Both the position numbers and the translations under genes were made by a program. The notes beneath the pieces are model-generated. The model saw only the letters and a list, made by a program, of their open reading frames with translations, did not search any database and was not told where the DNA came from. Positions 26,066 through 37,020 of a stretch of 64,000 nucleotides of DNA are shown here, piece after piece. Position 1 is the stretch's first letter. Each line of letters begins with the position of its first letter. This DNA comes from Bacteroidales bacterium (lineage in GTDB: Bacteria > Bacteroidota > Bacteroidia > Bacteroidales > GCA-2748055): assembly GCA_016936975.1 (NCBI GenBank), contig JAFGWU010000025.1, positions 361-64,360 of the forward strand. Reading direction: 5' to 3'.

Positions 26066-26572
26066 ATGAACTGTTATACCCAGAACGATTTTACAGGGCA
26101 TCTCCTCTTTATGCAGGATCAGCTGTTCTATTATGCCCTTCAGTTAACGGAAAACCAGCATGATGCCAGGGACCTGGTACAGGAAACAAGCTATAAGGCA
26201 CTAAGACACCGTAACAAATTGCTCAATGAGGAAAACATCAGAGCCTGGCTCTATACCATTCTCAGAAATTCTTACATCAATTTGCTGCGAAGCAGTCATA
26301 ACCGCAAAACGATCATCGAAGGGAACCTTCCCGATCCAGTGATTATCAATACCCTTGCAGGAAAAGAGTATTCTCCGGATGAACTGCTCATGAGAAAAGA
26401 GCTCCATGAAATAATCGGCCTGCTTCCCGAAACATACGGAGAACCGCTTAAGATGTTTCTTTCAGGTTATTCCTATAAGGAGATTTCTGAAAAAATAAAT
26501 ATTCCCATAGGAACGGTGAAAAGCAGGATCCATCTTGGTAAAAAGAAGATCAGAAAGGTTTATCTTGCCTGA
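26066..26572 (+). CDS. ECF-type RNA polymerase sigma factor
   Basis: DARDLVQET, AWLYTILRN and GYSYKEIS...IGTVKSRIH. Confidence 0.9.
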   Translation: MNCYTQNDFTGHLLFMQDQLFYYALQLTENQHDARDLVQETSYKALRHRNKLLNEENIRAWLYTILRNSYINLLRSSHNRKTIIEGNLPDPVIINTLAGKEYSPDELLMRKELHEIIGLLPETYGEPLKMFLSGYSYKEISEKINIPIGTVKSRIHLGKKKIRKVYLA

Positions 26573-26579
26573 TGGTAAT

Positions 26580-27170
26580 CTAAACAAGGTCGCAAGCATC
26601 GGCCGGCATCCAGTGTTTATCTTTTCCCTCCCACTTCACGTTGCACCCAATCGGATTGGTCACGGGAACCGATACCGGTTGGCCGGAAGTTAACTCTTCC
26701 AGTGCACGGTCCAGGTCGTTGACTGTAATTTTGGAAGCATCCCTGGGATTATCCACTCCGCGACCGGTATATACCAGTTTTCGATCCTTATCAAACACGT
26801 AAAAATGAGGTGTTCTAAGGGCCCCATAAGCCAGGGCTACCTCCTGAGACTCATCCCTCAGATACACCCAGGGGAACCGATGCTCTTCCATCCTTTTCAC
26901 CATGTAATCAAATCCGTCGATTTCATAAGTGTGCTCACTGTTGGAATTAATTCCCACAAATCGGACACCCCTGTCCGCAAATCTGAGTGCGGATGCCCTG
27001 GTTACCTCATCTGAACCCAGCACATAGGGGCAGTGATTACAGGTGAAAAAGATGACGAGAAAATCAGCTTCAGAAAAATCACTTAAACCATAGTGCCGGC
27101 CATCTGTTGCAGGGAGATAAAAATCGGGGGCTGTTGAGCCTGTTTTCAGTGTAAATGCCATATTCATCAA
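26580..27170 (-). CDS. Thioredoxin/AhpC-TSA family protein, cytoplasmic
   Basis: [14 protein letters not shown] and PIGCNVKW. Confidence 0.88.
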
Positions 27171-27266
27171 GTGTTTATCTGTTCAATCATTATTTACCCA
27201 CGGTGAAAAAGAAAAATACCTCATGGGATTGTTAAACAAATTGTATGTATAAAATGTTTAAAAGCT

Positions 27267-27746
27267 ATGACAAAAGCTTTTTTAACCATCCTTTCTGTCC
27301 TGATGCTTCAGGTTATGCTTTCGGGACAGACTGTAGCCCTTACAGATAAGGACGGGTTGGTTGATATCCTTCTCGCGGAAAGCGACACAACTTATGTGGT
27401 AAATTTCTGGGCCACCTGGTGCGCCCCATGTATTCAGGAAATCGGTTATTTCCAGGAGCTTCATAATCACTATGTCAATCAGAAGGTGAAAGTGATACTT
27501 GTCAGTCTCGATTTTCCCAGCCAGCTGAAGCAAAGATTGACACCCTTTCTTGATGAAAATAATATCACAGCCGATGTGCGGCTCATGACCGATCTGGATT
27601 ACAACAGCTGGATCAACCTTGTGGACCCCGGATGGTCAGGAGCCATTCCTGCCACCCTGGTGTTCAATAACCGCAAAAGAACCTTTGTTGAAAAAGCCCT
27701 CTCAAAAAATGAACTTTTCGATATTGTCAAACAAAACCATTACTAA
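27267..27746 (+). CDS. TlpA-like thiol-disulfide oxidoreductase
   Basis: NFWATWCAPC and WSGAIPAT; signal peptide. Confidence 0.88.
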   Translation: MTKAFLTILSVLMLQVMLSGQTVALTDKDGLVDILLAESDTTYVVNFWATWCAPCIQEIGYFQELHNHYVNQKVKVILVSLDFPSQLKQRLTPFLDENNITADVRLMTDLDYNSWINLVDPGWSGAIPATLVFNNRKRTFVEKALSKNELFDIVKQNHY

Positions 27747-27747
27747 C

Positions 27748-28347
27748 ATGAAAACAATTCTTTTAACCTTCGCCGGATTTCTGATGTTCACTGTTTTTGC
27801 AGATGCACAGCTTAAGCCGGGAGACAGAGCGGTTGAATTTAACCTAAAGAATATAGATGGTAAAATGGTGTCTCTTTCTGATTACAGCGATCAGAAAGGT
27901 GTTATCGTTGTATTTACCTGTAATCCCTGTCCTTTTGCCAAAGCCTATGAAAACAGGATCATTCAGCTTCACAATAACTTCCTTGAAAAGGGATATCCTG
28001 TTGTGGCCATTAATCCGAATGATGAGGAAATCTCTCCTGAAGATACATTTGAAAAGATGAAAGAACGTGCCGGGGAGAAAAATTTTCCGTTTCCGTACCT
28101 GAAGGATGAGACCCAGGCGGTCTATAAAGCCTACGGGGCTACGAGAACACCCCACATCTATCTTCTGCAGAACGACAGGGGAACCTTCAGGGTGGTCTAT
28201 ATCGGGGCAATCGATGACAATGCCATGGATAGTGCAGCAGTGATCCAACGCTACGTTGAAGATGCGATTGCCTCACTTGAAGCCGGCGCGAAACCGGATC
28301 CCGAGTTCACCAAAGCAATAGGGTGTACCATTAAAACCAAAGATTAA
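27748..28347 (+). CDS. Thioredoxin/AhpC-TSA family protein, exported
   Basis: ATG at 27748 gives signal peptide MKTILLTF; FTCNPCPF, TRTPH and AIGCTIK. Confidence 0.88.
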   Translation: MKTILLTFAGFLMFTVFADAQLKPGDRAVEFNLKNIDGKMVSLSDYSDQKGVIVVFTCNPCPFAKAYENRIIQLHNNFLEKGYPVVAINPNDEEISPEDTFEKMKERAGEKNFPFPYLKDETQAVYKAYGATRTPHIYLLQNDRGTFRVVYIGAIDDNAMDSAAVIQRYVEDAIASLEAGAKPDPEFTKAIGCTIKTKD

Positions 28348-30107: not shown

Positions 30108-31283
30108 TTATCCGATTGCGGAGGAAAGTATTCTGTACAACTCGTCACCGGAAAAGGTGACCGGATGAAGTTTATGGGATGTATTCTTAATGACCTTTTC
30201 CAAAGCTGTTTCATTCAATCCAAACTCAGATAATTTAGGTAATTCGAGCATTTTTGAGATATGGTCCAGTTTTTCCTTGAAGGCCATCAGGTATTCTGTT
30301 TCTTCCTTATATTTAAAATCCGAAAACACTTTGCTGGCGATAACCAGTTTTTTATAGGCGGGATTATCTTTCTGATCGATTAACTTATCAATGGTCATTG
30401 AAAAAACGGGTGCCAGAAGCGCCCCACAAACGGCCCCGTGGGGAATCTCATAATAGCCTCCCAGCGGAGAGGCAAATCCATGAACCAGTCCCAATCCGGC
30501 ATTCGTGAGTGTGATTCCTGAAAACATGGCGGCGATTGCCATACCTGCACGGGCCTCAAGGTTTTGATCACCTTCAAGATAAGCTCTTAGCAGGTGCTTC
30601 TTGATTTGCTTGAGCCCTTGAAGGGCAAGGGCGTCAGTAAACGGATTCGACTGGGTTGAGACATAGGATTCAAGCAGCTGACTGAAGGCATCCATTCCAC
30701 TCGTGGCAGTTAACCTGTCTGAACAGGAGATCATCATTTCAGGGTCGATAATAGCATGGTCCGGAATAAAATGATCATGCCGGAGCGATTTTTTAAATCC
30801 TGCCTCCCCGACCTCCGAGATAACCGCATTTTTGGTCATCTCACTTCCTGTTCCAGAGGTCGTGGGCATCGCAATAAACGGAACTTTCGATCCTGGGTGC
30901 TTCAGGTCACCTATGTCTTCAAGATATCTTTTTATTCCGTATTCCACCAATAAAAGGGCGGAAACGGCCTTGCCGGCATCCATCACACTGCCTCCTCCAA
31001 CTGCAACAACCACCTCAATACCGGAGTGCCTGTACCTGGAGACAATCTCATCCACCAGCTCCGGCGAAGGTTCTCGTGCCACCAACTCATGAGTAAGGTT
31101 AATATCCGCCTGCTTCAGTCCATTGAGGATCTCTTCCCCGTGACCGGCGTTGTGGATAGAGGAGGAACCCGTCAGAATCAGGACCCCGGAACCATACTCC
31201 CTGGCTATTCCCGGCAGGATACTTCTTTTCCCGGCACCAAAATGAATGACAGGTAACGTGGAAAACTTAAATGATGGTATCAT
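30108..31283 (-). CDS. Iron-containing alcohol dehydrogenase
   Basis: GGGSVMDAGK, PTTSGTGSE and GLVHG...PHG. Confidence 0.9.
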   Translation of the reverse strand: MIPSFKFSTLPVIHFGAGKRSILPGIAREYGSGVLILTGSSSIHNAGHGEEILNGLKQADINLTHELVAREPSPELVDEIVSRYRHSGIEVVVAVGGGSVMDAGKAVSALLLVEYGIKRYLEDIGDLKHPGSKVPFIAMPTTSGTGSEMTKNAVISEVGEAGFKKSLRHDHFIPDHAIIDPEMMISCSDRLTATSGMDAFSQLLESYVSTQSNPFTDALALQGLKQIKKHLLRAYLEGDQNLEARAGMAIAAMFSGITLTNAGLGLVHGFASPLGGYYEIPHGAVCGALLAPVFSMTIDKLIDQKDNPAYKKLVIASKVFSDFKYKEETEYLMAFKEKLDHISKMLELPKLSEFGLNETALEKVIKNTSHKLHPVTFSGDELYRILSSAIG

Positions 31284-31306: not shown

Positions 31307-31344
31307 AAAAAAAATGAAAGCCACTGTGAAAGCGGCTTTCATTT
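31307..31344 (-). terminator. Rho-independent terminator after tRNA-Arg
   Basis: Minus strand AAATGAAAGCCGCT-TTCAC-AGTGGCTTTCATTTTTTTT. Confidence 0.8.
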
Positions 31345-31362
31345 CTTTAATAAACCCTCCGG

Positions 31363-31436
31363 TGATTCCGGCGCGATTCGAACGCGCGACCCACAGCTTA
31401 GAAGGCTGTTGCTCTATCCAACTGAGCTACGGAACC
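31363..31436 (-). tRNA. tRNA-Arg (anticodon TCT)
   Basis: Cloverleaf: GGTTCCG/CGGAATC acceptor, GCTC/GAGC D-arm, ACAGC-CTTCTAA-GCTGT anticodon arm, GCGCG-TTCGAAT-CGCGC T-arm; CCA not fully encoded. Confidence 0.96.
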
Positions 31437-31560: not shown

Positions 31561-33333
31561 TCAGTTCCTTTTAATCCAGTTCACTAATCCTTTTACACTG
31601 AGTATCTCCAGCAATTTATCGGGAAGCGGCTGAAAGGAGTAGACACGATCCCCTATAAAAATGTTACCCCCTGTAAAATCAATATCCAGCGGCTCGCCCC
31701 TCCTGTAACTGGCAACCGCTTCAGGATGGACAATGAGAGGTAATCCCTGATTGATAGATGACCTGAAGAATATACGATTTACAGATTTCACTATCACTGC
31801 TTTCACACCGGCATGCACCAATCCGACAGCCGGATGCTCCCTTGAACTCCCGCATCCAAAATTTTCACCGGCCAATATTACATCTCCTTCCCTAACCTCT
31901 TTGGAAAAACGCGGATCAAAACCTTCAAAAAGATGCGGGAGGATTGCCTCAGGGTCTGAACTCAGAACATTATAGGTCAGGTTTCCGGCAAACATCTGGT
32001 CGGTGTTGAAATGATCCGTATCGGAATAGTCCCATACATCGTTGTGCCGCCGTTTATCCTCCGGAGCAATTTCAGTGGTAAGCGACTGCTCCCCTGCAAA
32101 GGGGAACTGTTCCGAACCCGGAGTGGACCTGGGATCCTGAATCCTGCCGAACAGGGCACTGTATGCCACCGTAGCAGGAGATGCGAGGAAGATTTCAGCA
32201 TTCTTATTTCCCATTCTGCCTAAGAAGTTTCTGTTGGCAGTGGATATAACCCGAAACCCATCGGCCGGGATACCCTGACCGGTTCCCAGGCATGGGCCAC
32301 AGGAAGCACTGAGAACGTTTGCGCCTGCCTTAAGAAATATGGTAATCAGGCCTTCTTCAACAGCCTGCAAATATATATCCCTGGAGGCAGGAACAATCAG
32401 CAGCTGAAAACCAGGTGACACCTTCCTCCCATCAAGAATAGCTGCTGCCTCACGTAAATCCTCAATTCTTCCATTGGTACAGGTCCCGATCAATCCCTGG
32501 TGAACCTCTGTACCGGCAACCTCTGCCACGGCTTTGATGTTATCCACATGATGGGGAGCAGCCACCAGCGGAAAGACCTCATCCAGATGAATAAGAATCT
32601 CATCTGCATACACGGCGTCCGGGTCCGCCCACACTCCTTCAACCTTTTCTCCAAGGTAATCCTGCAAAATCCCATCACAGGGAAATACCGCATTCTTGGC
32701 GCCCATTTCCGAAGCAAGGTTTGCCAGCGTCATTCTATCTGATATGGAAAGAGAGGCACATCCGTCACCATGAAATTCCATGGAATTGTAATTTGCACCG
32801 GAGGAACCAATTATTCCGATTATCCAGAGTGAAAGGTCTTTTGCATATACCCTGTCATTGAGCTTTCCCTGCAGGGATATCTTAAGGGTTTCAGGAACCC
32901 TGAACCATGTTTCTCCGCGCTTCCACAACCCGGCGGTCTCGGTACGGTCAATTCCTACAGCCAGGGTATTAAAAGCTCCTGCCGTACAGGTATGACTGTC
33001 ACTTCCCACGATGATCATGCCGGGCCGGGCATGCCGGGCCATCATCTGATGGCAGATTCCGGCCCCTGCATCATAGAATTTCTTAATCTTCTGTTCCCCG
33101 ACAAACTCCCGGATCTCTTTATAGCTGTTGGCAAGGGCAGCAGTGGTCGGAGGCGCGTTATGGTCGAGCACAACCAGAAGCTGATCGGGATCCAGCACAT
33201 CCGTACCTCCCATTTTCAAAAATGTTTTCTTGATGCTTGCCGTATTGTCGTGCGAGAGAACGATATCCGGTTTTCGGAATACAATTGACCCTGCAGGGGC
33301 ACCCAGTATTTTTTCAACGAAGGTCTTTCCCAT
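31561..33333 (-). CDS. Single-chain (fused large+small subunit) homoaconitase/isopropylmalate dehydratase family enzyme
   Basis: SHDN, LDH, GICHQ, DSHT, GTCTNGR, SCGPCLG, NRNF.GRMG and swivel-domain NFGCGSSREH. Confidence 0.88.
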   Translation of the reverse strand: MGKTFVEKILGAPAGSIVFRKPDIVLSHDNTASIKKTFLKMGGTDVLDPDQLLVVLDHNAPPTTAALANSYKEIREFVGEQKIKKFYDAGAGICHQMMARHARPGMIIVGSDSHTCTAGAFNTLAVGIDRTETAGLWKRGETWFRVPETLKISLQGKLNDRVYAKDLSLWIIGIIGSSGANYNSMEFHGDGCASLSISDRMTLANLASEMGAKNAVFPCDGILQDYLGEKVEGVWADPDAVYADEILIHLDEVFPLVAAPHHVDNIKAVAEVAGTEVHQGLIGTCTNGRIEDLREAAAILDGRKVSPGFQLLIVPASRDIYLQAVEEGLITIFLKAGANVLSASCGPCLGTGQGIPADGFRVISTANRNFLGRMGNKNAEIFLASPATVAYSALFGRIQDPRSTPGSEQFPFAGEQSLTTEIAPEDKRRHNDVWDYSDTDHFNTDQMFAGNLTYNVLSSDPEAILPHLFEGFDPRFSKEVREGDVILAGENFGCGSSREHPAVGLVHAGVKAVIVKSVNRIFFRSSINQGLPLIVHPEAVASYRRGEPLDIDFTGGNIFIGDRVYSFQPLPDKLLEILSVKGLVNWIKRN

Positions 33334-33337
33334 AAGA

Positions 33338-34372
33338 TTAAATCAACCTGATGTTGCACTTCCGGCAATGATCGACCATCTCTCCGGGCCAGATTGCCGA
33401 TTGTATTTCGCCGATATGAGCTTTCTGCAACAGGATCATTGCAGTCCTGGACTGCCCGATTCCCCCTCCAATAGCATGCGGCAATTCATCGTTGAGCAGC
33501 CTGCGGTGGAACATCAGATCCTTCCGATCCAATTCACCGGCGATTTCCAGTTGTTTCAAAAGTTCTTCCCTGTCTACGCGAATGCCCATGGAAGTAAGTT
33601 CACAGGCGCATTTCAGCACACTGTTCCAGACAATGATATCCCCGTTCAAACCTTTAAATCCTTTTTCCGTTTCCGTAGACCAATCATCATAATCGGAAGC
33701 CCTCCGGTCATGAGGTTTTCCGTCTGGCAATTCGGAACCGATGCCTATGATGAATACTGCCCCGTACTTTTCGGCTATTTTATCCTCCCTTTCTGCTGCT
33801 GGAATATCCGGATACATTTCAAAGAGCTCTTCCGAATGTATGAAGGTAATCTCTTCCGGTAAACGCGGTGTGATATGGGGGTAAAAGGTATGAATAAAGA
33901 ATTCACTTCGCTTGATATTGTCCCAAACCTTCAGGGCGGTCCGTTTTAAATAATCCAGGTTACGATCTTCCAATGATATGGCTTTTTCCCAGTCCCATTG
34001 GTCCACATATATCGAGTGCATGTTATCAAGCTCCTCATCAGGGCGAAGTGCATTCATGTCCGTAAAAATTCCGTAACCGGTTTGTATGTCGTAATCCCGG
34101 AGCATCATCCGTTTCCATTTTGCCAGAGATTGAACCACTTCTGCTTCCATATCCCTCAAATCTTTCATTTTAAATTTGATGGGGTGTTCAATCCCGGTCA
34201 GGTAATCATTTAATCCGGTTCCACTCAGCAGAAACAGGGGGGCAGTCACCCTTCTCAGCCGCAGGTCGTTGGATAAACCATCCTCGAACTGATCCTTCAG
34301 CAGTTCAATAGCCCTTTCTGTCTGCTTTAATCCGATTAAAGGAGCGTATCCTTCCGGTAATATCAGTCTCAT
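33338..34372 (-). CDS. asnA: Aspartate--ammonia ligase
   Basis: QSLAKWKR, HSIYVDQWDWE, RASDYDDW and IGGGIGQSR. Confidence 0.95.
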   Translation of the reverse strand: MRLILPEGYAPLIGLKQTERAIELLKDQFEDGLSNDLRLRRVTAPLFLLSGTGLNDYLTGIEHPIKFKMKDLRDMEAEVVQSLAKWKRMMLRDYDIQTGYGIFTDMNALRPDEELDNMHSIYVDQWDWEKAISLEDRNLDYLKRTALKVWDNIKRSEFFIHTFYPHITPRLPEEITFIHSEELFEMYPDIPAAEREDKIAEKYGAVFIIGIGSELPDGKPHDRRASDYDDWSTETEKGFKGLNGDIIVWNSVLKCACELTSMGIRVDREELLKQLEIAGELDRKDLMFHRRLLNDELPHAIGGGIGQSRTAMILLQKAHIGEIQSAIWPGEMVDHCRKCNIRLI

Positions 34373-34384
34373 AGGTAAAAAATT

Positions 34385-36190
34385 TTAAAATAATCCGTTA
34401 TTTTGATACAGTTCCATCTGAATTTCCGAAAATGGTTCGGCCTGAATGCTCATGCCGTTTCGCAGATTCTGAATGATCCCTGTTTTAAAATTGACCCTGA
34501 GTTCATCTCCCTGTTTGAGCTTAAGGGTCTTGATATCCCTGCAAATTATAACCGGAAGGGCTGCATTGATTGCATTCCGTTCATAGATAGCCCCAAAAGA
34601 CTCTGCAATAATGCACCCGATACCCAGGGATAAAAAACAGTCAACAGCCTGCTGACGGGAACTTCCCGAACCAAAATTCTTACCTGCAACAATAATGTCC
34701 CCGGCCCTGGCATTTGCGGCAAACTCTTCATATCCCTCAAGATTATCCAGCGCAAATTTACCCATTTCCCCAATAGCCGTAACAGTCAGGTACCTGTTAT
34801 GATAGATCATATCGGTATCAATATTGTCTTTTTCAATATACCATGTTTTTCCGGTAATCTCAAAAGGTTTCTCTCCTTGCACCTGTTTAGAGGTAGAATC
34901 TTCCTCCTTTTGCAAGACTTCCTTAAAACTACGAACAGGTGGCTTTTCAGGAATGGAATCCATATCGGTAATAAACCCTGAAACGGCGGAAGCTGCCACC
35001 GTTGCCGGAGAAGCCAGGTACACGCTTCCCTGACCCTGCTTTCCGGGAAAATTTCTGTTACCTGTGCTGATTGTCACTTCTCCCGGTCCGTTCTGGCCTA
35101 CCTGACCGGCTGCACATCCAGCACATCCTGCATTCGAAACCAAAGCCCCCGATTCCTTGAATATCTCTATCAATCCCTCCTCAAGGCACTGGTTCCATAC
35201 CCGGTCAGTAGCCGGAACAATCTTTAAAACAACCCCATCCGCAACGTGTCGCCCCCTGAGTATCGAGGCAGCTTCCCGCAGATCCTCAATCCTGCCGTTG
35301 GTACAGCTTCCAATAAATGCAGAATCTATCCAAATCCGGTCTGCCGGAATGAGAGCCGTATCATGCGGTTTTCCGGGCAGAGAAATCCTTGTCTTGAAAT
35401 CTGAAACATCAATTTTATGAACCATAGCATATTCAGCGTCCGGATCGGCAAAAACCGGAACAATTTTCCGTCCTGTCCGTGACTCGCAGTAACGAATGAC
35501 CTCAGGATTCGGTGGAAACAGGATGGTTATGGCTCCCAGTTCCGTGGCCATACTGGCAATGGTCAATCGTTCATCCAGTGACAGGTTTTGAACAAATTCC
35601 CCTTCAATCTCCACGGAATATCCCAGTAAAGTATTGGCTCCGAACAGATCCAGGAGATTTAAGACAATATCTTTCGCACTTATCTTTTTATGCGGCTTTC
35701 CTTCCAGGATCATTTTTACCGATGGAGGCACCTTGAACCAGATTTTTCCTTTATGCCATGCAGCCGCAATATCCTTATCCCCCATTCCCTGCCCGAATGC
35801 ACCGATTGCACCAAGAATATTTGCGTGTGAATCGGTCGAAACAGCTGTCGAACCGGGAACTACGAGTCCCTCCTCAATCATCAGATGCGTCCCGATCCCT
35901 CTGTCAATATCATAAACCCTTATCCTATGTTTACGGGCAAATACTCTGCATTTATGCTGGTTTGCCGCATATTTTTGATCGGAGCCCGTGGGATTGCAAT
36001 CGAAAGTAAAAAACGTTTTATCCGGATCATCAATGTCAAGATTGTATTTCTCTATATTGTTGACCACATTGGCACCTCCAAAATCCCTGGCCACTCTGGC
36101 ATCGATGCGAACATCCAGGATATCTCCCGGAAATATCATTTTCCGGCCGCTGTGAGAAGCCAGAATCTTTTCAATTACAGTCAACCCCAT
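34385..36190 (-). CDS. Second single-chain LeuC/LeuD-type aconitase-family protein with atypical active site
   Basis: DSH, GSCTNGR, GCAGC, NRNFPG and NIDTD present; variants RDFGG, FDC, GIGTH and GSGSSRQQ. Confidence 0.85.
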   Translation of the reverse strand: MGLTVIEKILASHSGRKMIFPGDILDVRIDARVARDFGGANVVNNIEKYNLDIDDPDKTFFTFDCNPTGSDQKYAANQHKCRVFARKHRIRVYDIDRGIGTHLMIEEGLVVPGSTAVSTDSHANILGAIGAFGQGMGDKDIAAAWHKGKIWFKVPPSVKMILEGKPHKKISAKDIVLNLLDLFGANTLLGYSVEIEGEFVQNLSLDERLTIASMATELGAITILFPPNPEVIRYCESRTGRKIVPVFADPDAEYAMVHKIDVSDFKTRISLPGKPHDTALIPADRIWIDSAFIGSCTNGRIEDLREAASILRGRHVADGVVLKIVPATDRVWNQCLEEGLIEIFKESGALVSNAGCAGCAAGQVGQNGPGEVTISTGNRNFPGKQGQGSVYLASPATVAASAVSGFITDMDSIPEKPPVRSFKEVLQKEEDSTSKQVQGEKPFEITGKTWYIEKDNIDTDMIYHNRYLTVTAIGEMGKFALDNLEGYEEFAANARAGDIIVAGKNFGSGSSRQQAVDCFLSLGIGCIIAESFGAIYERNAINAALPVIICRDIKTLKLKQGDELRVNFKTGIIQNLRNGMSIQAEPFSEIQMELYQNNGLF

Positions 36191-36258
36191 GTCATCTAAT
36201 TTTCGTCAAAGATACGTACATTGAGATTGTGCCGGATATATTATAAAACATTTCCGGA

Positions 36259-37020
36259 TCAGATTTCCACTACCAGTCCGTCATAGGCAGCTGTTATGCC
36301 CTCCGGTAAGTCTTTGCAGAAATCCTCATGCCGGCCCATCTGGTGGGAAATATGGGTCAGAAGACCGTATTCAGGATTCAGTTCATTTATGAGTTCAACC
36401 GCCTCTGAAAGGGTAAAATGCGAAATATGTTTCTCCCTTCTCAGCGCATTAACAACCAGGACCTTTAATCCTTTTAATTTTGCTTTCTCTGATTCGGGTA
36501 TGAAATTCGCATCCGTGATGTAGGCAAAATTATCTATCCTGAAGCCCAGAACCGGAAGATGGTAATGCATAACCCGAATGGGCACAATGAGTATATCTTC
36601 CACATGAAAAGGAATCACGGAAATGATATGTTCATTTATCCGGGGTATGCCCGGATAATTCTTCCCGGCAAAAACATATGGAAATTCATACTTCAAAGCT
36701 TTGAAAACACTCTCCTCTGCAAACACATCCATGGATTGTTTCTGAAGATAATTGAAGGCTCTTATATCATCCAATCCGGCAATGTGGTCCCTGTGCTCAT
36801 GGGTGAAAACCACAGCATCGAGCCTCGTAACTGCATGACGCAGCATCTGCTGACGAAAATCAGGACCGGTATCGACCACTATTTTCCTGCCATCCATCTC
36901 CACCAGGATGGAGGAGCGGAGTCGATTATCCCGGGGATCCGTTGATTTGCATGTTTCACAGCTGCACCCAATAACCGGGATTCCCTGCGATGTACCGGTT
37001 CCCAGAAAAGTTACCTTCAA
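36259..37020 (-). CDS. MBL-fold metallo-hydrolase (PhnP-like)
   Basis: LGTGTS.GIP, DTGPDFRQQ, THEHRDH and THISH; TTG start. Confidence 0.9.
   Translation of the reverse strand: MKVTFLGTGTSQGIPVIGCSCETCKSTDPRDNRLRSSILVEMDGRKIVVDTGPDFRQQMLRHAVTRLDAVVFTHEHRDHIAGLDDIRAFNYLQKQSMDVFAEESVFKALKYEFPYVFAGKNYPGIPRINEHIISVIPFHVEDILIVPIRVMHYHLPVLGFRIDNFAYITDANFIPESEKAKLKGLKVLVVNALRREKHISHFTLSEAVELINELNPEYGLLTHISHQMGRHEDFCKDLPEGITAAYDGLVVEI

Follow-up and report, generated by a model that had tools for sequence, protein, structure and literature searches.

The 64,000-nucleotide (nt) stretch of a Bacteroidales bacterium analysed here (contig JAFGWU010000025.1; hereafter the window) carries an asnA gene flanked by two genes for single-chain, aconitase-family proteins, referred to as A and B. 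All three lie on the minus strand, separated by gaps, read from the sequence, of 12 nt between A and asnA and 4 nt between asnA and B; open reading frames and sequence confirm the apparent operon and the gene boundaries proposed in a preliminary description of the window. A and B belong to an enzyme set that is widespread in anaerobic bacteria and that probably reshapes and splits citrate-like acids.

34385–36190, minus strand: gene A, a fused LeuC+LeuD-type aconitase-family protein of 601 amino acids (aa) with a rebuilt active site (Pfam, HMMER alignments)
33338–34372, minus strand: asnA, aspartate–ammonia ligase, 344 aa (TIGR00669)
31561–33333, minus strand: gene B, a fused LeuC+LeuD-type aconitase-family protein of 590 aa with a canonical site, of the archaeal-type HacA/IPMI subfamily (Pfam, NCBIfam)

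Both proteins join Pfam domains PF00330 (Aconitase) and PF00694 (Aconitase_C) in one chain, with 269.2 and 53.8 bits for A and 297.3 and 55.0 bits for B against cut-offs of 28.7 and 22.8. The motifs of B (SHDN, LDH, GICHQ, DSH, GTCTNGR, CGPC and GCGSSREH) are those of an ordinary hydro-lyase, and the complete catalytic set already attributed to B is upheld by alignment. A instead reads RDFGG, FDC, GIGTH, DSH, GSCTNGR, GCAGC and SSRQQ. HMMER alignments to pig aconitase, whose residue numbering is used throughout, and to the solved large subunits of Methanocaldococcus jannaschii isopropylmalate isomerase (IPMI) and homoaconitase (HACN) place these motifs at the positions assumed for them from the letters of the sequence, where every quoted motif is present. 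A aligns end to end with these structures (264.5 bits with the IPMI and 224.1 bits with the HACN large subunit), and the small domains of A and B do so with the M. jannaschii small subunits.

In aconitase, His101 protonates the leaving hydroxyl. The Asp100–His101 pair and His147 of the canonical hydro-lyases (aconitase, IPMI and HACN) are retained in B (D-H and H) and lost from A (D-C and T). The substitutions in A comprise Q72R, H101C, H147T with the histidine shifted to position 148 (Q148H), T168A, N258S, R452K and the change of REH to RQQ, of which N258S and R452K are additions to those listed previously. A has in this way gained Lys452, Arg72 and His148 near the active site. It retains D100, D165-S166-H167, E262, N446-R447 (in NRNF) and S642-S643-R644. 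The three cysteine ligands of the [4Fe-4S] cluster, C358, C421 and C424, are present in both proteins, as is the Ser642 base of the GSSR segment (GSGSSRQQ in A, GCGSSREH in B). Active sites of the aconitase superfamily are a textbook example of fixity. Aconitase, IRP, IPMI and HACN have identical residues at more than 15 of the roughly 20 active-site positions (PMC8184944).

The unusual site of A is highly conserved. Its best 120 homologues are about 600 aa long and 67–72% identical to A, and each motif occurs in 119–121 of the 121 sequences, the query counted. The retrieved loci supplied 44 distinct orthologues of full length, spanning Bacteroidales, Cloacimonadota, Delongbacteria and Armatimonadota; RDFGG, NRNFxGK, SSRQQ and the cysteine motifs are found in all 44, and FDC and GIGTH in 42. 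For comparison, the catalytic motifs of B are kept in 26–27 of 27 orthologues and its cluster cysteines in all 27. Decay of A, the first explanation that such substitutions invite, is rejected on these counts, which indicate that the rebuilt site is under selection.

A FastTree phylogeny of the large domain was built from 155 sequences, namely the best library representatives for A together with A and B from ten loci, and it covers the nearest relatives of A without named references. A falls within a clade of 24 sequences (support 1.0), nearly all of which carry R72, a residue other than histidine at 101, H148, S258 and K452; the signature is absent from all 131 tree sequences outside this clade, and B is placed elsewhere, among canonical sequences. 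The clade includes split, unfused forms of 408–422 aa in which position 101 is leucine or tyrosine and the rest of the signature is kept; the relatives of one of these are generically named proteins of Zixibacteria and Anaerolineae metagenome-assembled genomes (MAGs). Because residue 101 varies (C, L or Y), cysteine is not the common denominator of the clade, and the earlier suggestion that a cysteine at the catalytic position is the key to A is unlikely to hold. Three library representatives within the A-like clade (P0126, P0128 and P0130; 489–605 aa) have lost the cluster cysteine ligands and the DSH motif, and are probably non-enzymatic derivatives as far as their sequences tell.

Profile scores place A and B in a broad subfamily without assigning either to a characterized enzyme. 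Both pass the archaeal-type HacA/IPMI large-subunit subfamily model NF001614 (A 405.0, B 471.9; cut-off 385) and TIGR01343, the latter at the borderline for A (385.9 and 461.4; cut-off 385.7). Neither reaches any LeuC/LeuD, HacA or aconitase equivalog cut-off, which argues against each being, on its own, an ordinary LeuCD or HacAB. The scores (A, B, cut-off) are 280.4, 389.7 and 550 for the homoaconitase model NF040615 (HacA_Meth); 275.2, 306.1 and 529.9 for fungal homoaconitase (TIGR00139); 333.8, 385.5 and 610.65 for TIGR02083, 197.3, 192.4 and 560.25 for TIGR00170, and 122.1, 118.2 and 245.85 for TIGR02084 in the LeuC/LeuD equivalog set; 285.4, 369.7 and 612 for the fused aconitate hydratase NF005558 (PRK07229); and 243.8, 295.7 and 719 for TIGR01342. 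A Protein Atlas look-up of A returned generic aconitase-family clusters only, and the NCBIfam name for the A clade is likewise that of the broad subfamily. The best solved relative of B is the large subunit of M. jannaschii homoaconitase (4kp2, 336.6 bits), ahead of IPMI (4kp1, 316.3 bits). The small-domain recognition loop of A, YLTVT (YL[A/T/S][I/V]T in its orthologues), is closer to the YLVYT of IPMI than to the YLRTT of homoaconitase, and that of B reads NLTYNVLSS; the arginine of YLRTT is missing in both. Segments of B had been likened to fungal Lys4. Orthology with Lys4 is rejected at 306 bits against the 529.9 required by TIGR00139; of the two segments concerned, SHD is kept in 7 and NTD in all 27 of the B orthologues.

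A and B are consistently found together, as had been anticipated. Pattern scans of species genomes yielded 22 loci and those of metagenomes another 21, with some duplicates (for instance L013/L039 and L029/L051). In 33 of these 43 loci B follows A in the same orientation, which makes 33 of the 34 informative ones, since nine of the other ten break off within A or fewer than 700 nt beyond it. The remaining locus, L009, has a 6-kb flank without B, and a B-like gene lies on another contig of its genome. Among 80 relatives of the window's genome, 47 carry both genes, 29 carry neither, two carry B alone and two A alone, so that 47 of 49 A-positive relatives have B; the two A-only genomes are G064, where A is at a contig end, and G096, which is 100% complete.

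The arrangement of the pair is more variable than its presence. One or two unrelated genes stand between A and B in 7 of the 33 loci. These inserts (L012, L013/L039, L030, L038, L040 and L041) encode a DUF3800 protein, a 23S-rRNA-intervening-sequence protein, an S41 peptidase or a Fib_succ_major protein, and a nucleotidyltransferase/HepT toxin–antitoxin pair is also found at or near the junction, which from its gene content looks like an insertion hot spot. Within the window's family, B is co-directional with A and asnA in the window's genus and in genera g2, g4, g6, g11 and g14, and inverted, hence convergent, in g3, g5, g7, g9 and g13, about half of the family. In G039, a 99% complete relative, B is split into two overlapping frames (C8:287864-289637) and the Iso_dh gene of the module described below was not found, so the module may be decaying there; in-frame stops also occur in B of G053 and G094.

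The informative context for A and B lies outside the window. In three loci (L024, L027 and L029), six genes form one operon in the order CitD-CitE fusion, CitF, an Iso_dh-family dehydrogenase of about 396 aa, an HD-like protein of 181 aa, A and B. A fourth, L051, is nearly identical to L029 and shows the same order up to an earlier contig end. Partial module operons are found in L014, L018, L038 and L040, and partial order recurs in loci of Cloacimonadota, Delongbacteria and Armatimonadota. In many Bacteroidales the module is split between two places, one reading [AraC or C69 dipeptidase]-A-B and the other [methylmalonyl-CoA epimerase and Na+-decarboxylase genes]-CitDE-CitF-(dipeptidase on the opposite strand)-Iso_dh-HD. 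In the Bacteroidales relatives L058–L061 and L074, CitDE-CitF directly follows a methylmalonyl-CoA epimerase/Na+-translocating decarboxylase cluster, and a PepD-type dipeptidase gene lies on the opposite strand between CitF and Iso_dh in four of four loci. The A-positive genomes examined number 72, made up of 22 from other lineages, 49 of the 80 relatives and the window's genome; kin genomes among them are not independent of each other.

CitF: 22 of 22 A-positive genomes of other lineages; among relatives, 49 of 49 A-positive against 5 of 31 A-negative
Module Iso_dh: 21 of 22 A-positive genomes of other lineages; among relatives, 48 of 49 A-positive against 4 of 31 A-negative
HD-like protein: 21 of 22 A-positive genomes of other lineages, the set covered by this count

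The association extends to relatives outside the window's family, where CitF is present in 9 of 9 A-positive against 3 of 23 A-negative genomes and Iso_dh in 9 of 9 against 2 of 23. Overall, the CitD-CitE fusion and CitF accompany A and B in 71 of 72 carrier genomes. The CitF of L029 scores 518.5 bits, above the citrate-lyase equivalog cut-off of 501.45, and the CitE of this locus, at 282 bits, is far below the corresponding cut-off of 443. The module Iso_dh scores best on models of the AksF/homoisocitrate-dehydrogenase type, under their cut-offs. It has isoleucine at the position of N115 in Escherichia coli isocitrate dehydrogenase (IDH), a residue that we take to bind the gamma-carboxylate of isocitrate, and valine at the position of R85 in Thermus homoisocitrate dehydrogenase (HICDH), where an R85V exchange reportedly abolishes the use of isocitrate and allows homoisocitrate and 3-isopropylmalate. 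In the HD-like protein (L029:5449-5994 and 15 homologues), AD replaces the HD doublet (ILADVGK), and invariant histidines are kept in RHPFSG, CHIIA.HAGEG and HHADF.

Genes of lysine breakdown accompany the module in some carriers. In L027 and L029, B is followed by an aldehyde dehydrogenase and a saccharopine-dehydrogenase-family gene, and the aldehyde dehydrogenase is also present in L051. It is an L-piperidine-6-carboxylate dehydrogenase by equivalog score (793.9 bits, cut-off 730). This enzyme is encoded by 39 of 49 A-positive against 5 of 31 A-negative relatives, and outside the family by 5 of 9 against 4 of 23. The window's genome has it on contig C97 (790.8 bits), and a homologue of the saccharopine-dehydrogenase-family gene (50% identity) on contig C90.

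The preliminary description also asked whether the carrier genomes lack other aconitases, and they generally do not. Many of them encode both a LeuC (about 470 aa) and an aconitase of the mitochondrial type (about 750 aa), which suggests a third function for A and B; the window's assembly itself holds such an aconitase, of 767 aa, and A and B are its other aconitase-family genes. A role as the host's only aconitase or only LeuCD is rejected for most carriers, given these extra enzymes. In six of the 22 carriers of other lineages (G002, G005, G006, G009, G010 and G011), A and B are the sole aconitase-family genes, and in five of these (all except G005) citrate synthase was not found (0 of 5) and the module Iso_dh is the sole Iso_dh.

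The window's genome is the exception among the carriers, being the only one of the 72 A-positive genomes without CitF. In its assembly (89.9% complete, 102 contigs), CitF, a module-type Iso_dh and the HD-like protein were not found, leaving A and B as the only parts of an incomplete six-gene module. In the relative G036, all the missing module genes lie with methylmalonyl-CoA decarboxylase genes in one 21-kb stretch, and none of the core genes of this stretch was found in the window's genome; a single assembly gap or a single deletion would explain the absence. An acyl-CoA carboxyltransferase gene at the start of contig C26 was considered as the remnant of a broken Mmd-CitDEF cluster and rejected, as biotin carboxylase and BCCP genes follow it, indicating a different carboxylase. 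Two minus-strand genes lie close to contig ends, leuB (474 bits, cut-off 353) 219 nt before the end of C24 and a cimA/leuA-like gene 253 nt into C52. Because these genes sit at contig ends where leuCD would fall, the assembly visibly breaks operons, and the leuCD genes of this genome were probably lost in an assembly gap.

The gene between A and B is a true asnA (TIGR00669, 380.3 bits against a cut-off of 292.8; residues 19–335 on profile positions 9–325 of 330). All 11 loci of the nearest relatives read A-asnA-B, and asnA follows A in 37 of 40 A-positive genomes of the family, A being at a contig end in the other three; insertion as a one-off event in the window is rejected on this basis. At the 43 more distant loci asnA was not found beside A and B, and no asnA was detected at E <= 1e-60 in the nine A-positive relatives outside the family. 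The linkage had been read as a hint of amino-acid or nitrogen metabolism, a hint that loses weight now that the linkage proves restricted to a single Bacteroidales family. The window's genome has a second asnA (G000:C25:131249-132277), 62% identical to the A-linked copy, as well as AsnB-type genes. Genera g2, g4, g6 and g14 likewise have two asnA copies, and in g3, g5, g9 and g13 the only copy is the one beside A. The simplest reading of this distribution is that asnA was captured once behind A in the family ancestor and has been retained since as a co-expressed passenger. There may also be a metabolic tie, through ammonia-rich growth or through oxaloacetate or aspartate as a product. New here are an asnA capture that spans the family, the inverted B of half its members, a second copy of asnA and a genome that apparently lacks the other module genes.

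Around the three genes, the following features were recorded.

36259–37020, minus strand: MBL-fold metallohydrolase gene, 68 nt upstream of A (Pfam, NCBIfam)
36207–36214, minus strand: TAtcTTTG, ending 16 nt 5' of the ATG of A (sequence reading)
31361–31436, minus strand: tRNA-Arg(TCT), directly 3' of B (ARAGORN)
31308–31348, minus strand: terminator-like hairpin of 18 pairs with a T-run, 3' of the tRNA-Arg (hairpin scan)

TAtcTTTG matches what we take to be the consensus of the Bacteroidetes -7 promoter element, TAnnTTTG, and a TAtatTTG motif occurs just past the stop codon of B, ahead of the tRNA-Arg. A sigma-70 promoter scan, based on a model unsuited to this phylum, gave 16 sites against 13.9 expected. 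Since the terminator-like hairpin precedes the Fe-ADH gene (30108–31283), the latter forms a separate unit. The MBL-fold gene, found ahead of A in 10 of the 11 loci of the nearest relatives, is a conserved neighbour and at most a putative member of the A-asnA-B unit. Matches in one metatranscriptome of the same study are limited to the tRNA and to a single 162-nt contig within B. The absence of adjacent leuA, leuB or lys genes, remarked on earlier, is borne out, with no leu or lys genes within about 10 kb of the cluster. The neighbourhood is otherwise ordinary and includes genes for T9SS-tailed proteins, which mark the organism as a member of the Bacteroidota. Elsewhere in the window (26066–28347), an ECF-type sigma factor gene stands beside three thioredoxin/peroxiredoxin-fold genes, two of which overlap (27267–27746 and 27619–28347), so that one start is probably miscalled.

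A division of labour between two aconitase-family hydro-lyases is a known kind of arrangement, and A and B may be viewed as an instance of it. Fungal and Thermus homoaconitases catalyse only the conversion of homoaconitate into homoisocitrate, the preceding formation of homoaconitate out of homocitrate being the task of an aconitase (PMC3556520). Two aconitase-family enzymes of fungi and Thermus thermophilus (aconitase or Aco2p with Lys4 or HacAB) share one isomerisation, with one of them restricted to the alkene/secondary-alcohol half, which is the arrangement that we propose by analogy for A and B. Aco2p, the enzyme of the homocitrate side, is tuned by an active-site arginine-to-lysine exchange at the site of Aco1p R604, whereas the arginine-to-lysine exchange of A lies elsewhere, at R452. 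The fungal and Thermus systems also differ in that both enzymes keep the full catalytic set and serve a biosynthetic pathway with homocitrate synthase. Here, the candidate for the citrate side, A, has lost His101 and His147, the chains are LeuC/LeuD fusions, and the carbon–carbon partner is an acyl-carrier-protein-dependent lyase of the CitDEF type.

Other systems resemble parts of the set. The closest solved relatives of A and B by sequence, M. jannaschii homoaconitase (4kp2/2pkp) and isopropylmalate/citramalate isomerase (4kp1, 4nqy/3vba), are two-subunit enzymes that each perform both half-reactions with a canonical H..DH..H site, and A and B lack the YLRTT loop. In the 2-methylcitrate cycle, AcnD, PrpF and AcnB presumably offer a comparable combination of tertiary-alcohol dehydratase, helper and second aconitase-family hydratase; AcnD is a canonical AcnA-like protein, and PrpF is not an HD protein. 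The module shares the CitD-CitE fusion and CitF with citrate lyase (CitDEF) and its citramalate-lyase analogue, and differs in joining them to Iso_dh and two hydro-lyases, a combination that we know of in no citrate-lyase operon. The loss of His101 also has a parallel. In AcnX enzymes His101 is dispensable, and these dehydration-only enzymes use a lysine to protonate the hydroxyl (PMC8184944). A single half-reaction without His101 is what we propose for A, which is nevertheless a LeuC/HacA-type protein and not an AcnX, the latter having another domain order, other cluster chemistry and unrelated substrates. A literature search with little coverage of subscription journals found no paper on the A/B pairing, the rebuilt clade or a homocitrate-type lyase, and nothing relevant to fused LeuC/LeuD proteins in Bacteroidetes was among the matches listed.

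From the gene structure, site conservation, pairing and co-occurrence described above, we infer substrates, a direction and a division of labour for A and B. We give a probability of roughly 0.5 to the reading in which they serve as the hydro-lyase pair of a conserved but uncharacterised tricarboxylate module that anaerobes encode in six genes (CitD-CitE, CitF, Iso_dh, the HD-like protein, A and B), most likely for a seven-carbon (C7) conversion and with asnA as a passenger. B, with its complete aconitase-type site, would interconvert a cis-alkene and an isocitrate-type secondary alcohol. A, which keeps the [4Fe-4S] ligands, the serine base and most carboxylate binders and has lost the His101 general acid, would carry out only the citrate-type, tertiary-alcohol half-reaction. 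A relay that splits the two half-reactions, a possibility already raised in the preliminary description, is thus the best reading, probably acting on homocitrate-type acids. The set as a whole would run from a 2-oxo acid, CO2 and NAD(P)H to an isocitrate-type acid, an alkene, a citrate-type acid and finally acetate and a shorter 2-oxo acid; because the lyase equilibrium favours cleavage, this direction is the most likely one. The most likely conversion would lead from 2-oxoadipate through homoisocitrate and homocitrate to 2-oxoglutarate, downstream of lysine breakdown. The C7 series is favoured by the linkage to lysine genes, the Iso_dh residues, the homoaconitase that is the nearest relative of B and the known need for two enzymes.

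Several observations weigh against this assignment, some against the module reading as such and others against the C7 substrates. Since about half of the family carries B in inverted orientation, co-transcription of A and B is not required. The pathway is not closable in the window's genome, as CitF, Iso_dh and the HD-like protein were not found there, unless they lie in the missing 10%. L-piperidine-6-carboxylate dehydrogenase exceeds its cut-off in no more than 5 of the 22 carriers of other lineages (a sixth has a partial match where its contig ends) and is lacking in 10 of 49 A-positive relatives. The recognition loops without arginine in A and B would suit an uncharged or hydrophobic side chain, of the citramalate or isopropylmalate type, rather than homocitrate, and the score of the L029 CitF fits citrate. 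Finally, position 101 is variable across the wider A-like clade, and an enzyme without His101 may be no hydro-lyase.

The citF score and asnA both point to a six-carbon (C6) series, in which the same module and relay would reductively carboxylate 2-oxoglutarate, derived from glutamate, to isocitrate and isomerise this to citrate, for cleavage to acetate and oxaloacetate by a true citrate lyase, feeding aspartate and asparagine or a succinate–propionate route. The retention of asnA behind A would be sensible if oxaloacetate or aspartate were the product, the position of CitDE-CitF after the methylmalonyl-CoA decarboxylase/epimerase cluster in Bacteroidales is compatible with such a route, and in the five carriers without citrate synthase, another Iso_dh or another aconitase the module is the sole citrate-type enzyme set. 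We consider the C6 series unlikely all the same, since Iso_dh has isoleucine where IDH has what we take to be its isocitrate-binding N115 and has its best scores with models of the homoisocitrate type, A and B belong to the LeuC/HacA rather than the aconitase type, and many carriers already possess a standard aconitase. One aconitase would also be enough for citrate, which leaves the need for two enzymes unexplained, together with the co-occurrence of piperidine-6-carboxylate dehydrogenase. The loss from A of two of the three histidine–carboxylate pairs of aconitase (H101 and H147), with cluster ligands and carboxylate binders kept, could alternatively mark an Fe-S-dependent isomerase or some other third step, such as the shift or flip of an alkene double bond (compare AcnD, PrpF and AcnB), possibly assisted by the degenerate HD-family protein that is strictly linked to the set in 21 of 22 genomes. 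This appears quite improbable, as A retains the Ser642-equivalent base and the D165-S166-H167 water and hydroxyl binders expected of hydration chemistry, A and B persist in the window's genome, where no HD-like protein was detected, and we know of no isomerase with an aconitase fold.

Two further alternatives deserve very little weight. That A, B or both are ordinary biosynthetic isomerases replacing LeuCD for leucine or isoleucine in the window's genome would fit an assembly (89.9% complete) with leuB and one cimA/leuA-like gene in which separate leuC and leuD genes were not found. The contig-end positions of those genes, with leuC-leuD expected in the gap, make a stand-in hardly probable, as do the coexistence of canonical LeuC with A and B in relatives, scores under all LeuC/LeuD equivalog cut-offs and a site in A unlike that of any known IPMI. 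Equally slight is the chance that A has no catalysis of its own and serves B as an Fe-S partner, chaperone or sensor, its extra cysteine perhaps acting as a fourth ligand to close the cluster. A cysteine does replace His101 beside the cluster site, and the loss of cluster cysteines in P0126, P0128 and P0130 indicates that the clade can drift toward non-enzymes. Conservation of S166, N446, R447 and S642-S643-R644 in all or nearly all of 44 orthologues would be needless in a silent partner, however, and the cysteine gives way to leucine or tyrosine in split A-like forms that otherwise carry the signature. Nothing points to the sensor role once suggested for A.

If the module does act on the C7 series, a bolder and tentative proposal, which we hold to be more doubtful than the module assignment, is a lysine-catabolic cycle in anaerobic Bacteroidales, Cloacimonadota and other phyla, with the alpha-aminoadipate pathway operating in reverse. 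In this cycle 2-aminoadipate would be formed by saccharopine and piperidine-6-carboxylate dehydrogenases, 2-oxoadipate would be reductively carboxylated to homoisocitrate, B and A would convert this to homocitrate, and a CitDEF-type 'homocitrate lyase' would release acetate and regenerate 2-oxoglutarate. A would then be the first LeuC/HacA-type [4Fe-4S] dehydratase without the His101 general acid, founding a large clade with split forms in Zixibacteria and Anaerolineae.

A large, conserved clade in which the general acid and four other residues are exchanged, and the cluster and base are kept, would represent a new catalytic solution or a new reaction. The strict pairing of A with B, its canonical paralogue, with an enzyme of the citrate-lyase type and with a β-decarboxylating dehydrogenase of unusual kind suggests a possible, undescribed pathway for the shortening of 2-oxo acids. 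The A and B genes are annotated as leucine-biosynthesis enzymes in hundreds of MAGs, which distorts metabolic reconstructions, and the pathway they would belong to may supply the missing route by which anaerobes dispose of 2-oxoadipate derived from lysine.

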